DNA of 64,000 nt. Source: Deltaproteobacteria bacterium. GTDB taxonomy: Bacteria > Desulfobacterota > Deferrimicrobia > Deferrimicrobiales > Deferrimicrobiaceae. Position 1 is the first letter of the stretch, and the number at the start of each line of letters is the position of its first letter. The stretch spans positions 2,189,097 to 2,253,096 of the forward strand of contig CP070783.1 of the NCBI GenBank assembly GCA_020346465.1, read 5' to 3'. The position numbers and the translations under genes were made by a program. Below the pieces are notes generated by a model, which searched no databases, was not told where the DNA came from, and worked only from the letters and a program-made list of their open reading frames with translations. Shown piece by piece: positions 3,925 to 30,677 of this stretch.

Positions 3925-4818
3925 GTGAAGCCGTATTCGGTGAGCTTCGGCGGAATTCCCGACAAGTATTCCTCGTGGAAGAGTTCGGCATTCGTCGTCC
4001 TGCCGTTCCCGATCGACCTGACCGCAACGTACGTGTCGGGGACGCGGAACGGTCCCCGGGCGATGATCGAGGCATCCGGCCACATGGAGCTGTTCGACGA
4101 GGAGAACAAGATCGAGCCGTACCGGGCGGGGATCTTCGTCTCCACGGAGATTCCGGTGCTGACCACGGGCCCGCTCGCCATGCTGAAAGAGCTCGAGAAG
4201 CGGGTGAAGGCAGTCACCCGGGCGGGAAAGTTCCCCATCGTCGTGGGGGGGGAGCACTCGGGGACGTGCGGCGCGGTTTCCGCCCTGAAGAAGAAATACG
4301 AGGATCTCACCGTCCTGCAGTTCGATGCGCATGCGGACCTGCGAGACACCTATCTCGGAACTCCCTGGAACCACGCCTGCGTGGGTCGCCGCATCGTGGA
4401 CTCCGGAGCGAAACTCGTGCAGGTCGGGGTGCGCAGCATCTCGGAGGAGGAGGACCGGTTTCTGCGCCGGGCGGAAACCGTCAAGTCCTTCTACGCGTCG
4501 GAGGTACGGGACAATCTTGCGGATGTCACGCGGGGGATCGTGAGCTCCCTCACCGGCAACGTATACATATCGATCGACCTCGACGTCTTCGACCCGGGGA
4601 TCATGCCGGCCGTGGGAACGCCGGAGCCCGGCGGTCTGGACTGGTTCGAGGTGATCGACATCCTGCGGGACGTGATGCGGGCGGACTGCAACATCGTGGG
4701 ATTCGACATCATGGAGCTTTCCCCCCTCCCCGGCATCGTCGCCCCGGATTTCCTCGCGGCGAAGCTGTGCTACCGGATGATGGGGTGGATCCTCGCCAAG
4801 CGGGAAGAGAAGAAGTAG
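3925..4818 (+). CDS. speB: agmatinase (arginase family)
   Basis: Ureohydrolase motifs ([22 protein letters not shown]); GTG start 7 nt after an AAGGAGG SD. Confidence 0.8.
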
Positions 4819-26529: not shown

Positions 26530-27095
26530 ACGAAAACAGCCGGCTCAACCTGCCCAATCTCCTCACGCTTTTCCGGATCCTCACCGTCCCGGTCGTCGTC
26601 CTGCTGCTGTACACGCCCGAGGGGCGCGACATTTCCTTCTCCCGGTCCCTGGCGGCGATGATCCTGTTTACGGTCTCGTCGTTCACCGACCTGTTCGACG
26701 GGTACATCGCGAGGCGGTACCAGATGGTCACCTCGCTGGGGAAACTCCTGGACCCTCTCGCGGACAAGCTTCTCGTCTGCGCGGCGATCGTGATGCTGAT
26801 CCCCTCCGGCAGGGTGCCGGCCTGGATGGTGGTCATCATCGTCGGGCGGGAGATCGGCGTCACGGCGCTCCGGGGGGTCGCCTCCACCGAAGGGCTCGTC
26901 ATCGCCGCCTCCTCCCTGGGGAAGGCGAAGACGGTCCTGCTGTCCATCGGGGTCGGGGCGCTCATCCTCAACTACCCGATCCTGGGGATCGACGTCCACC
27001 TCCTGGGGATGCTGTTCCTGGTCGCCGGGCTGATCCTCACGGCGTGGTCCGGAATGGACTATTTCTTCCGGTTCGTGAAGGAGATCTTCAAGTAG
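26526..27095 (+). CDS. pgsA: CDP-diacylglycerol--glycerol-3-phosphate 3-phosphatidyltransferase
   Basis: CDP-alcohol phosphatidyltransferase motif (DLFDGYIARR...GKLLDPLADK); ATGA overlap. Confidence 0.85.
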   Translation: MNENSRLNLPNLLTLFRILTVPVVVLLLYTPEGRDISFSRSLAAMILFTVSSFTDLFDGYIARRYQMVTSLGKLLDPLADKLLVCAAIVMLIPSGRVPAWMVVIIVGREIGVTALRGVASTEGLVIAASSLGKAKTVLLSIGVGALILNYPILGIDVHLLGMLFLVAGLILTAWSGMDYFFRFVKEIFK

Positions 27096-27116
27096 CGGCG
27101 CACCCGGACCGATTCC

Positions 27117-27146
27117 TTGACAATGCTTGGGCGATTCTCATAGAAT
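27117..27146 (+). promoter_or_regulatory. tRNA-Gly promoter
   Basis: Perfect TTGACA, 18-nt spacer, TAGAAT, ending 12 nt before the tRNA 5' end. Confidence 0.55.
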
Positions 27147-27158
27147 CGAGGTCCTGAC

Positions 27159-27233
<75 letters not shown>

Positions 27234-27243
27234 AATAAAACAG

Positions 27244-27278
27244 GGGGTTGCGACCTTCACCGCAACCCCTTTTTCTTT
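27244..27278. terminator. bidirectional intrinsic terminator after tRNA-Gly
   Basis: GGGGTTGCG-ACCTTCAC-CGCAACCCC followed by TTTTTCTTT on the + strand and TGTTTTATTT on the - strand. Confidence 0.7.
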
Positions 27279-27417
27279 CCGGTTGGCTGGTTTATCCTGC
27301 CACTTATCCCGCCCCGTTTCCCGTCACAGGAAGGAACAACAGGGGCCTGGCCCCGACGCCATTTCCTGGATCAGGGAGAGCTTGTACCATTTTCCCCCGG
27401 TCATCCCGTGGTAGGGA

Positions 27418-27558
27418 TCAATCCACCAACGGCAGGAGCCGGATCCAAGCAATTATCCGCGATACGTTTATGATGATGACGATCGCGGAAAACCCGATAA
27501 CGGCTGTAATGAATATCGCTAATATTTCGTCCGGGATATATCGAACCCGCGAGTTCAT
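27418..27558 (-). CDS. unannotated 46-aa single-TM hydrophobic peptide (MNSRVRYIPDEILAIFITAVIGFSAIVIIINVSRIIAWIRLLPLVD)
   Basis: Below the ORF-track size cutoff; ATG 7 nt after a perfect AAGGAGG SD; AT-rich codons (ata, tta, att) unlike the host; sits in the low-GC segment next to tRNA-Gly. Confidence 0.45.
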   Translation of the reverse strand: MNSRVRYIPDEILAIFITAVIGFSAIVIIINVSRIIAWIRLLPLVD

Positions 27559-27657
27559 TCTTCTTCCTCCTTATACCTTCCCTTGTCGTCTCGTTTCCTT
27601 TTCAACTAGTCAACGAACAGTGTCCCCCCGCCGCCTCCTTTCCGGCGGGGCAGTTTA

Positions 27658-27671
27658 CCAGGTATACCTGG
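27658..27671. promoter_or_regulatory. perfect 14-bp palindrome CCAGGTATACCTGG (candidate operator)
   Basis: Lies between the divergent small ORF and the RHH gene, about 50 nt upstream of the RHH start; a GC-rich 8-bp stem hairpin (CCCCGCCG...CGGCGGGG) lies at 27626-27650. Confidence 0.3.
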
Positions 27672-27722
27672 AAAACAATTTATACCCGGGGTTGTAGAAG
27701 TCAAATCTTTTTTGAGGGTATA

Positions 27723-27911
27723 ATGGCGGCCATGGAAAAGAAGAAAGGACCACCGCGGCATTACCCGACGACGATCTGCACCCGCGTTTCGGAAAAGACG
27801 TTCAGCCGGCTGGCGAAGTTGGCCCTGGATGAGGATCGGCCGGTTTCGTGGATCGTCAGGAGAATCCTCGTCCAACACCTGGAGGCCCAGGACAAGAAGG
27901 GGCGAAAATAG
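27723..27911 (+). CDS. ribbon-helix-helix (CopG/Arc-like) DNA-binding protein
   Basis: 62 aa; ICTRVSEKTFSRLAKLALDEDRPVSWIVRRILVQHL has an RHH beta-alpha-alpha pattern; a TATAAT overlaps the first ATG, so the second ATG (27732) may be a leaderless start. Confidence 0.55.
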   Translation: MAAMEKKKGPPRHYPTTICTRVSEKTFSRLAKLALDEDRPVSWIVRRILVQHLEAQDKKGRK

Positions 27912-27930
27912 CGCCCAGGATGTTTTTTTT
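27900..27930 (+). terminator. putative intrinsic terminator of the RHH gene
   Basis: GGGCG-AAAATAG-CGCCC stem-loop spanning the stop codon, then AGGATG and a T8 run. Confidence 0.45.
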
Positions 27931-28111
27931 CTCCCCGTCCTGAAGAGATCAACGACACCCTGCTCCCCTTGGAACTCCTCCCCCCTGTGGCAAATTGGCT
28001 CAGTTGTCGGCTTACGAACCCTCGGAGGGCTCCCCCGCTTCGGGTACAGTTCGGGGACGTTCTTAAACTTTTTAAGGCATGGGACCGGATTCCCTCCGTT
28101 GGAGGGGGAGA

Positions 28112-28849
28112 TTACCCGATTTTCTGCGCCAAATCCCCGGCGAAGACGGGATAGGAGCGCCGAAGAAGCGGGATCTGGGCGCGCATCAGCGCGAGATCGG
28201 ACGGGGAAGGGGAGGGCGTTTCCGGAACCTTTTCCGGCAGTAGGGGGAACCCCGTCTGCTTTCGCACCTCATCGCCCGATACGCCGGGATGGAGGGAGGC
28301 AAGATGCCACTCGGCGGCGTCGCCGTCGTACTCCATCGTGCAAAGGGGCGTGATGAGCTTCGTGGGGCCTCCCCGACGCCACGGGTAATGCGGGGTGCTC
28401 GCCGCGGACGTGATGAAGTCGCATTTCTCCACGAACACGCGGGGGGAGTGGGCAAGCGTCACCAGGACGACGCGCCGGGTCATGTAGTAGAGCATTGCCG
28501 AGCCCGCTCCTCCGGGAAGGCGGACGCGGGGGGCGGCGTACTCCCCGATGCAGGTCAGGTTGATGTTCCCCTTTCGGTCGATCTGGGCGCCCGACAGGAA
28601 GAAGAGGTCGAGTTTTCCCCGCTGTGCCAGGTCGAACAGCTCCCGGGAGCCGTCGGTTACGGGGGTGTCTTCCGACCCGAAGAAGAGGAACTTTCCGTGT
28701 CCGGCATGACGTGCCCTTGCGTGGAGCACCCCCAGAAGAGGAACGGGAGAGAGAGTGCCCACCGCCGTCCGCTCGAAATCGCGAACCTCGAGGGAAACCT
28801 GGAAGGCCAGGTATTCCTCCGGAAGGCATCCCTCGAGGGCGAGGGCCAT
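28112..28849 (-). CDS. family-I CoA-transferase subunit B (beta)
   Basis: LFFLSGAQIDRKGNINLTCIGEY matches the beta-subunit core of AtoA/GctB-type CoA-transferases; begins 7 nt after the subunit A stop. Confidence 0.8.
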   Translation of the reverse strand: MALALEGCLPEEYLAFQVSLEVRDFERTAVGTLSPVPLLGVLHARARHAGHGKFLFFGSEDTPVTDGSRELFDLAQRGKLDLFFLSGAQIDRKGNINLTCIGEYAAPRVRLPGGAGSAMLYYMTRRVVLVTLAHSPRVFVEKCDFITSAASTPHYPWRRGGPTKLITPLCTMEYDGDAAEWHLASLHPGVSGDEVRKQTGFPLLPEKVPETPSPSPSDLALMRAQIPLLRRSYPVFAGDLAQKIG

Positions 28850-28855
28850 GGCGCG

Positions 28856-29704
28856 TCAGACCGCCTTCCCGCAGGCAAGCCCGAGATACTCTTCCTCGGT
28901 CTTCCCGAGGACGAACCGGTCCAGGTACTCCGAAAACCCCTCCGGCGTCTTCGCCGCCGCGAGGTACTCCTCGACGTGGGCGCGGTCGATCCCGTAGACG
29001 TGGACGCATCCTGCCGGGTGGGCGCCCCGAGGCGCCACGACGACCAGGTCGATGTGGAGGGCGGAGAGGAAGATCTCCCCGGGACGGGCGACGAGTGTTT
29101 CCGGCGGGACGACTTCCTCCACGGTTACGATCGACTGCTTCGCCGCGAGGACGGCGAGCCGGTCCGATTCGAGAGCGGAACAGACGACGTTTCCCATTTC
29201 GTCGGCGCGGATCGCGTGGATGACCGCCCAGTCCGGGCGGATCGCCGGCACGACGAAGATCTCCTTTCCCGAATACGGGTCCGTGACTGTCCGGAAATCC
29301 TCCCGGACCTTTTCGTAGTCGGTCCCGGCGAACCCGAGCATGGGGTGGAACGGCAATCCGGAGGCTCCAGCCTGGAGACCGGCCAGGATGCCGGGTCAGG
29401 AGTGTTCGTGCGTGACGATCCGCCCGCTTTCGACCCCCCGCCGGAAGTTCGGCGCCATGCCGAACTCCCCCATCGATACCTGGGGGAACTCGATGGAGCG
29501 GGCACACCCGGCGCCGACGAGCAGGTCGACGTTGATCCCCCCCACGGGAACGACGACAAGGTCGAGGTCCCTCTTCTCCTGCCGGACCAACTCCCGGACG
29601 AACGCCATCGGGCTCATGATCATCGCCCCGCCGATCGCGATCTTCGCCCCCGAAGGTACGCTGCCGGCGGCCTCGGCAAGCGTCACGAACTGCGCCTGAT
29701 TCAT
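28856..29704 (-). CDS. family-I CoA-transferase subunit A (alpha): one 282-codon frame with a single in-frame TGA at 29398..29396 (candidate selenocysteine codon, or a nonsense-mutation pseudogene)
   Basis: ORF-track pieces 29396..29704 (MNQAQFVTLAEAAGS...RIVTHEHS) and 28856..29356 are in the same frame, separated only by a TGA; both halves look like alpha-subunit sequence; AGGAGA SD 7 nt before the ATG at 29704. Confidence 0.7.
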
Positions 29705-29784: not shown

Positions 29785-29872
29785 TGGTGCCCGGGGGGGG
29801 GATCGAACCCCCACGGCTTGTTCAGCCACGGGATTTTAAGTCCCGTGCGTCTGCCAGTTCCGCCACCCGGGC
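29785..29872 (-). tRNA. tRNA-Leu (anticodon UAA), type II with long variable arm
   Basis: Reverse complement is GCCCGGGTGGCGGAACTGGCAGACGCACGGGACTTAAAATCCCGTGGCTGAACAAGCCGTGGGGGTTCGATCCCCCCCCCGGGCACCA. Confidence 0.85.
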
Positions 29873-30602: not shown

Positions 30603-30677
30603 TGGAGGCGGCACCCGGATTCGAACCGGGGGATGAAGGATTTGCAGTCCTCTGCCTTACCGCTTGGCTATGCCGCC
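30603..30677 (-). tRNA. tRNA-Cys (anticodon GCA)
   Basis: Reverse complement is GGCGGCATAGCCAAGCGGTAAGGCAGAGGACTGCAAATCCTTCATCCCCCGGTTCGAATCCGGGTGCCGCCTCCA. Confidence 0.9.

Follow-up and report, generated by a model that had tools for sequence, protein, structure and literature searches.

Several heterodimeric enzymes share the coenzyme A (CoA)-transferase fold, and not all of them transfer CoA. In the two-subunit enzymes GctAB (1poi), AtoDA and SCOT, the beta subunit carries a glycine-rich loop and a glutamate (GctB Glu54, SCOT Glu305), which in glutaconate CoA-transferase is the covalent catalytic residue, and the alpha subunit contributes a glutamine (in the YSQD motif of GctA; Gln100 of AtoD; Gln99 of SCOT). 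Two other described members of the fold, IpdAB of Mycobacterium tuberculosis (Rv3551/Rv3552; 6co6, 6co9, 6coj) and AibA/AibB, the 3-methylglutaconyl-CoA decarboxylase of Myxococcus xanthus (5mzw-5n03), act without transferring CoA; the beta subunit of IpdAB has no catalytic glutamate, and in AibAB the canonical one is replaced. As for selenoproteins, most of those known are redox enzymes with UxxC/CxxU motifs. Bacterial genes that carry a selenocysteine insertion sequence (SECIS) within the open reading frame (ORF), such as Escherichia coli fdhF, have an in-frame UGA opposite a cysteine of their homologues and a stem-loop just downstream. Here, we analysed a stretch of 64,000 nucleotides from a Deltaproteobacteria bacterium (contig CP070783.1, positions 2,189,097 to 2,253,096; hereafter the window), in which the gene for the alpha (A) subunit of a CoA-transferase-fold protein is interrupted by a single TGA at codon 103. 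Comparison with related sequences makes it very likely that this gene encodes a genuine selenoprotein, in which UGA103 is read as selenocysteine (Sec) by means of a downstream hairpin; the product is probably a non-classical acyl-CoA enzyme of the CoA-transferase fold.

Re-translation of the minus strand gave one frame of 282 codons plus a stop, with the TGA at codon 103 as its sole interruption (coordinates in Table 1), as the original prediction had proposed for two separate ORF pieces. The frame across the TGA reads THEHS, stop, PGILAGLQAGASGLPF, and the junction reported previously (THEHS, stop, PGILAGLQAGASGLPFHPMLGFAG) was correct. When cysteine was put in place of the stop, the A subunit produced one Pfam CoA_trans (PF01144) match that covers residues 8-203 and bridges the TGA (E 4.7e-20), in agreement with the earlier view that both halves are parts of one CoA-transferase A subunit. 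The ORF of the beta (B) subunit, which was correctly placed 7 nt past the A stop, matches PF01144 as well (E 4.5e-18). At the level of the fold, the CoA_trans domain is thus present in both A and B, encoded by adjacent genes, and the B gene adjoins the A gene in every locus examined with enough sequence. NCBIfam contained no dedicated model for the A subunit and returned weak sub-threshold matches only (acetate / 3-oxoacid CoA-transferase A subunits).

The interrupting codon is widely conserved. We scanned one genome per GTDB species and found 335 relatives; in the best 80 of these loci, the codon-103 column held TGA in 36, a cysteine codon (TGT/TGC) in 15 and a histidine codon (CAC/CAT) in 31. 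TGA was also found at this codon in L001, L003 and L004, giving 39 other loci in all, at 43-99% protein identity. The TGA form occurs in at least seven lineages: Candidatus Deferrimicrobiaceae/Deferrimicrobia, Syntrophales, one Syntrophomonadaceae metagenome-assembled genome (MAG), Rokubacteria, Leptospirales, Chloroflexota/Thermomicrobiaceae and one Sulfotelmatobacter (Acidobacteriota) MAG. The top-ranking matches are MAGs that carry the label Candidatus Deferrimicrobiaceae or "Deltaproteobacteria bacterium", and the nearest, from the window's own group, shares 96% identity over the C-terminal part and 99% over the N-terminal 95 codons. Among the 69 full-length proteins within the 120 best database matches, column 103 was Cys in 60, Glu in six, Gly in two and Ala in one. 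The two checks named in the original prediction, for a cysteine at the site in homologues and for conservation of the TGA itself, therefore both came out in its favour, the latter in independent loci from several phyla. None of the 39 aligned genes contains an additional stop (0/39), and the halves before and after the TGA have diverged equally (53%/53% identity in L019, 44%/45% in L021).

This arrangement has left a mark on sequence databases. When 5.8 billion protein clusters were searched, the matches at 67-91% identity, some 50 clusters, were all C-terminal fragments of 155-173 aa; two further fragments had ~51-52% identity, and the best full-length match reached just 46%. An exhaustive search of 1.84 billion cluster representatives gave, among the best 150 (50%-identity), ~35 C-terminal-only ORFs that start a few residues from the site. 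In three metagenomic/genomic contigs, the gene caller had delivered ORFs of 102 aa and 158-166 aa in one frame with the TGA between them, and the gene is present as fragments in NCBI, JGI, ENA and Logan alike. The homologues appear as C-terminal fragments because gene callers end the N-terminal ORF at the TGA. With every sampled source annotating the gene as two fragments, the alpha subunits of this family are systematically mis-called.

A second cysteine tends to accompany the TGA form. Column 233 is Cys in 34 of the 36 TGA-type loci, in 49 of 51 C-terminal fragments and in ~60% of the Cys-type proteins, and Ala in the His type; AibA likewise has a cysteine in this column. Cys233 could be a resolving cysteine for a selenenyl-sulfide, or merely an active-site residue, and Sec103 and Cys233 may form a redox pair; their co-occurrence is strong though not absolute. 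The His-type subfamily (31/80 species loci: L041, L049-L051, L053, L054, L056-L059, L061-L068, L070-L073 and L076-L084, with the match region near 4001) is mostly alphaproteobacterial and has CAC/CAT in the motif EEHSHAAMANAYEA at the Sec/Cys column, together with Ala at the Cys233 column.

Just downstream of the UGA, the minimum-free-energy (MFE) fold of the window pairs G19-G20 with C35-C36 and CUCCA with UGGAG, leaving U21 bulged and GGC as the loop. The hairpin described in the original prediction therefore exists in the window fold. Its bulged U, which had been likened to that of E. coli fdhF, is not a shared feature of the family, since only the window and its nearest relatives have it; in the majority of orthologues the base is a G that pairs with C35. 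We aligned 28 TGA-type sequences, numbering the columns from the U of UGA, and derived a consensus with RNAalifold. Columns 19-26 pair with 30-37 around an invariant G27-G28-C29 loop, standard pairs fill 92.9% of the alignment cells, and the consensus does not include the lower stems seen in the window's own fold. Both sides have changed in five of the eight pairs (C-G to A-U, C-G to G-C, A-U to G-C, G-C to A-U and G-C to C-G). On four of five measures, none of 500 column shuffles matched the observed values; for further pair types, 47 of 500 did. As a control, the 3' partner was slid by 1-3 columns, and pairing fell to 30-55%. The Thermomicrobiaceae/Acidobacteriota form, GGGAUGCG-GGC-CGCAUCC, differs from the window type, GGGCUCCA-GGC-UGGAGCC, in three pairs, all three of which are compensated.

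Selection on this segment was also apparent at synonymous sites, in a test that presupposes no structure. In 22 non-redundant TGA-type genes, third-position entropy over codons +6 to +11 was 0.42 bits against a gene mean of 1.30, the lowest six-codon window of the gene; in nine Cys-type genes the same codons gave 1.51 bits (mean 1.28). The constraint is found at genomic G+C contents of 47-48% and of 66-71% alike. In the window, the G+C content at third codon positions of the A gene is 0.82-0.85, yet the hairpin keeps GCT and GGA, two codons that end in T or A and whose third bases take part in stem pairs. The hairpin agrees with the published bacterial SECIS consensus (the Zhang and Gladyshev model, of which PMC13188914 gives a summary) in its loop, GGC or A-GGC-U, its stem of 7-8 bp and its spacing of 22-23 nt from the UGA, and its energy in orthologues is -10.9 to -12.2 kcal/mol. 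A covariance model built from the alignment scored left-out TGA loci at 61.6-81.3 bits and Cys-type genes at no more than 40.2 bits at the homologous place, and nothing else in the window scored; this control is a modest one because the left-out loci are closely related to the training sequences. The locus thus resembles in-ORF SECIS genes such as fdhF in having an in-frame UGA opposite Cys in homologues and, just downstream, a stem-loop with G-G opening the apical loop at that spacing and with an upper stem of that length, and differs from fdhF in that the bulged U is unconserved. The proposal that the hairpin is a bacterial SECIS is borne out by the TGA-specific synonymous constraint, the compensatory changes and the fit to the consensus.

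The position of residue 103 in the fold was examined against solved structures. The nearest to the A subunit are AibA (5mzw, E 2e-36), IpdA (6coj, 6co6 and 6con, E 5e-31, 2e-30 and 5e-27) and GctA (1poi, E 5e-25), and AibB was the best-scoring solved relative of the B subunit (E 2e-35). Sec103 aligned without gaps, and with high posterior probability, to the lone residue that differs between the IpdA chains 6co6_A (Glu) and 6coj_A (Ala). GctA has Gln (YSQD) in this column and AibA has Gly, and BLASTP against E. coli AtoD placed Sec103 opposite Gln100. As AtoD 15-135 aligns with pig SCOT 14-134 (equal lengths, offset one), AtoD Gln100 should correspond to SCOT Gln99, which a 2026 structural paper lists among the conserved residues surrounding the bound CoA. 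The canonical CoA-lining glutamine of the alpha subunit is therefore absent, and its position is that of Sec103. A by-eye alignment anchored on a conserved Glu had set Sec103 opposite the Pro of the "PQG" of SCOT/AtoD; BLASTP and HMMER corrected this to the Gln. By these alignments, column 103 is an active-site position that varies among Gln, Glu, Cys, Sec, His and Gly across subfamilies, and this alternation suggests that the residue sets the chemistry.

The B subunit departs from the classical pattern too. When a profile of 22 B subunits was aligned to 1poi_B and 5mzw_D, GctB Glu54 (IIVESG) and AibB Cys56 fell on a column of L/F/Y/V/I, which is Phe57 in the window, and no Glu was found in the eight columns around it in these 22 proteins. 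The glycine-rich loop PGGAGS is invariant in the B subunits. AibB Cys56 has been described as standing in for the catalytic glutamate of Gct (PMC7756340). As the B subunit is without the canonical catalytic glutamate, the enzyme is probably no classical CoA-transferase. The earlier assignment to family-I CoA-transferases accordingly stands for the fold, through PF01144 in both subunits, and probably not for the chemistry, with no catalytic Glu in B and Sec in place of the CoA-lining Gln.

Set beside the described systems, the pair resembles GctAB, AtoDA and SCOT in its two-subunit fold, Pfam family and glycine-rich beta loop, but lacks their beta glutamate and has Sec instead of their alpha glutamine. 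With IpdAB, which according to a review carries out retro-Claisen hydrolysis of a CoA thioester, it shares the heterodimeric fold, a beta subunit without catalytic Glu and a functional alpha residue in the Sec103 column; unlike in IpdAB, that residue is Sec/Cys rather than Glu, the similarity is distant, and the window is without steroid-catabolic genes. With AibAB it has in common the fold and the loss of the canonical beta Glu; it differs in having Phe57 where AibB has Cys56 and Sec103 where AibA has Gly, and in the window there are no aib-like neighbours. Compared with typical selenoproteins, the A subunit is without a UxxC/CxxU redox motif.

We propose that UGA103 is read as selenocysteine, and that SelB with Sec-tRNA(Sec) is recruited by the conserved hairpin, which spans 19-37 nt counted from the U of this codon. 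The product would be a 282-aa alpha subunit of ~30 kDa that pairs with the co-transcribed beta subunit. Sec103, replaced by Cys in relatives, would most likely act directly on the bound acyl-CoA as a nucleophile or as an acid/base, in a reaction like those of IpdAB and AibAB (cleavage of a C-C bond, decarboxylation or isomerisation) instead of ping-pong CoA transfer. A non-transferase reaction is suggested because a Cys or Sec acyl-enzyme cannot give the enzyme-CoA thioester that the ping-pong mechanism needs. A bolder version, which we regard as tentative and rather doubtful, is that Sec103 serves as the covalent nucleophile, attacking an acyl-CoA either at its thioester or at its beta-carbon. 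Enzymes of this kind would then form a new mechanistic class within the CoA-transferase fold, in which the catalytic residue has moved from the beta Glu to the alpha Gln99 position, and would be rare non-redox selenoenzymes of acyl chemistry in at least seven lineages.

Several observations weigh against this proposal. We found no selA, selB, selD or tRNA-Sec gene in the window, nor in the sequence flanking 30 related loci; among ~49 ORFs of the window, Pfam scans gave just housekeeping genes (SecDF, RecJ, NusA, IF2, PNPase, MutL, MutS, GlnD and others), and ARAGORN detected tRNA-Gly, tRNA-Leu and tRNA-Cys only. The window hairpin is no more stable than expected (z = -0.22, with 81 of 200 shuffles folding as well). 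We dropped folding stability as evidence in this GC-rich sequence, and since the hairpin is about as stable as shuffled sequence, the window by itself does not decide the matter, and the significance of the hairpin comes from the comparative data alone. With its bulged U, the bare hairpin of the window has an energy of -6.9 kcal/mol, short of the -7.5 criterion, and reaches -10.7 with four more pairs. At gathering or permissive thresholds, Rfam gave no SECIS family match for the hairpin. In Deferrimicrobiaceae, no conserved metabolic partner lies next to the operon. As for the enzyme, the IpdA residue in the Sec103 column is one that we take to be Glu105, which reportedly (Crowe et al., 2018) acts as the catalytic base when this hydrolase opens the cholesterol ring. 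Finally, a low-confidence hhalign alignment to E. coli AtoA put the SENG glutamate on another column, His51, though there is no Glu there either.

Among the explanations that do without selenocysteine, a sequencing or assembly error at the TGA is a prior possibility and nothing more, and the presence of the same codon in dozens of independent assemblies from different projects makes it practically negligible. A recent nonsense mutation, with a hairpin that is coincidental in GC-rich DNA, would agree with the shuffling result for the window, but it is extremely improbable: the TGA recurs in 39 other loci at protein identities as low as 43-45%, the two halves are intact, equally diverged and free of frameshifts or more stops, and the hairpin is maintained by compensatory changes. 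Because the TGA is kept so widely, without extra stops and with halves that diverge alike, we regard as excluded these two explanations, which the original prediction had itself listed. We consider it quite improbable that the gene is a conserved split gene, in which the TGA is a real stop, the subunit is assembled from two polypeptides of ~102 aa and 160-180 aa, and the hairpin has a role in coupling translation or in stabilising the mRNA. Two ORFs are indeed annotated in every assembly, and no Sec machinery was found in the window. The stop, though, is always TGA, never TAA or TAG, and lies exactly at the Cys codon of homologues; the hairpin has the spacing and the loop expected of a bacterial SECIS; and there is no conserved in-frame start, the TTG (+14) and ATG (+19) of the window being CTG, GTG, ATT or ATC and other non-start codons elsewhere. 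Recoding of the UGA to another residue, by programmed read-through with Trp, Cys or Gly, appears very improbable. Sec insertion itself is inferred, and a hairpin could in principle stimulate such read-through, but the alternation of Cys and UGA at an active-site position is the classical Sec/Cys signature, and the hairpin has the geometry of the SelB-binding consensus, with G-G in a small apical loop at 22-23 nt from the UGA. A reassigned codon does not account for it either, since other genes of the window end in TGA and the genetic code is thus standard. Several other same-frame ORF pairs separated by TGA, for instance 2-694/695-1660 (SecD/SecF) and 48631-48930/48931-49434 (HU/HIT), are separate genes and no candidates for read-through.

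The most serious competitor concerns the reaction and not the residue. The enzyme might still be a CoA- or acyl-transferase, with Sec/Cys103 as the covalent nucleophile (through an acyl-selenoester or thioester), and no lyase or hydrolase like IpdAB or AibAB. Sec103 does sit at the Gln99 position beside the thioester of the bound CoA, the beta PGGAGS motif is invariant, and the canonical nucleophile is missing. We nevertheless think this unlikely, as the established family-I mechanism requires the enzyme-CoA thioester that, by our reasoning, a Cys/Sec acyl-enzyme would not make, the nearest solved relatives of both subunits include two non-transferases, and AMP-forming acyl-CoA ligases adjacent to the genes in several homologous operons would make a separate CoA-transferase redundant. 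The reading that we favour thus remains that of a selenoprotein with a reaction of the IpdAB/AibAB kind.

Table 1. Features of the A/B operon and its surroundings in the 64-kb window.
Feature	Position	Strand	Basis
A (alpha) subunit read-through gene, 282 aa, CoA_trans fold, Sec predicted at 103	28856..29704	-	Single frame, PF01144
UGA codon 103, predicted selenocysteine	29396..29398	-	TGA kept across loci; Cys codons in homologues
Apical hairpin, candidate bacterial SECIS, 7-8 bp stem, invariant GGC loop 29370-29372	29362..29380	-	RNAalifold, covariation, entropy
Lower stems in the window's own fold, unconserved in orthologues	29351..29393	-	Present in MFE fold, absent from consensus structure
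Cys233 codon, GAHPxxC motif, second conserved cysteine with the Sec form	29006..29008	-	Column counts in relatives
B (beta) subunit gene, 245 aa, CoA_trans fold	28112..28849	-	PF01144; nearest structures AibB, GctB, IpdB
Phe57 codon of B subunit, column of GctB Glu54 / AibB Cys56	28679..28681	-	Profile alignment
tRNA-Gly(GCC)	27159-27233	+	ARAGORN
tRNA-Leu(TAA)	29785-29872	-	ARAGORN; ends ~80 nt upstream of A start codon
tRNA-Cys(GCA)	30603-30677	-	ARAGORN

In the window, the neighbours of the operon are tRNA genes, a LysE-family gene and housekeeping genes. The Deferrimicrobiaceae operon has tRNA-Cys and tRNA-Leu upstream and tRNA-Gly downstream, an arrangement that recurs in most loci of this family (L003, L005-L009, L013, L014). 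Elsewhere, an AMP-forming acyl-CoA ligase lies directly upstream of the Cys-type genes P0027 and P0072 and of the Sec-type L022, and the Cys-type P0051 is surrounded by acyl-CoA dehydrogenases and a succinyl-CoA ligase. In some Syntrophales genomes, a second CoA_trans pair or gene stands beside the Sec-type pair (L032 781-2647, L029 6782-7843); in L032, an Amidohydro_2 gene and a gene resembling ADP-forming acyl-CoA synthetases go with it. This context is in keeping with an enzyme acting on an acyl-CoA that a ligase has produced; the neighbourhoods are heterogeneous, and we name no substrate. In the Syntrophomonadaceae MAG (L028 2162-3595), the Sec-type A gene is immediately preceded by a gene of the MttB (trimethylamine methyltransferase) family, some members of which use pyrrolysine.

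From tRNA-Gly to the end of the B gene (window positions 27000-28100), the G+C content is 0.547 vs ~0.66 for the window, and there is just one small ORF, of 62 aa (27723-27911, + strand), in which no family was recognised. At the corresponding place, L003 has a PemK-toxin gene preceded by a 78-aa ORF, and the segment looks like a variable islet beside the tRNA gene. The rest of the window is ordinary, with secDF, recJ, nusA, infB, pnp, purB, a nadB- or sdhA-like flavoprotein gene, pgi, mutL, miaA, accA and pheA, as well as aroF-like, ispH, rpsA, HU, mutS, amiC-like, glnD, xerC/D-like, cca-like, trpS/tyrS-class, scpA and scpB genes.

No CoA-transferase, and no PF01144, figures among the 119 prokaryotic selenoprotein families and subfamilies that a 2026 review lists with domain identifiers. 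The deep-Sep paper with its supplements and the main text of BSepDB contain no CoA-transferase selenoprotein either, an entry in some prediction list being possible. A search of full-text literature for a link between CoA-transferases and selenocysteine found nothing relevant, and the genome paper on Candidatus Deferrimicrobium makes no mention of selenium. The proteins described here would therefore be a new family among the bacterial selenoproteins with an in-ORF SECIS, in an enzyme type that is not known to use selenium, with further novelty possible in the enzyme mechanism.

If this is true, the prokaryotic selenoproteome would gain a widespread family that is missing from the catalogues. 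Selenocysteine at the acyl-CoA site of a fold stripped of its usual nucleophile would point to a family of acyl-CoA-transforming enzymes in which the chemistry is set by one residue, and the natural Sec/Cys pairs of this family would offer a direct test of what selenium gains in non-redox catalysis.

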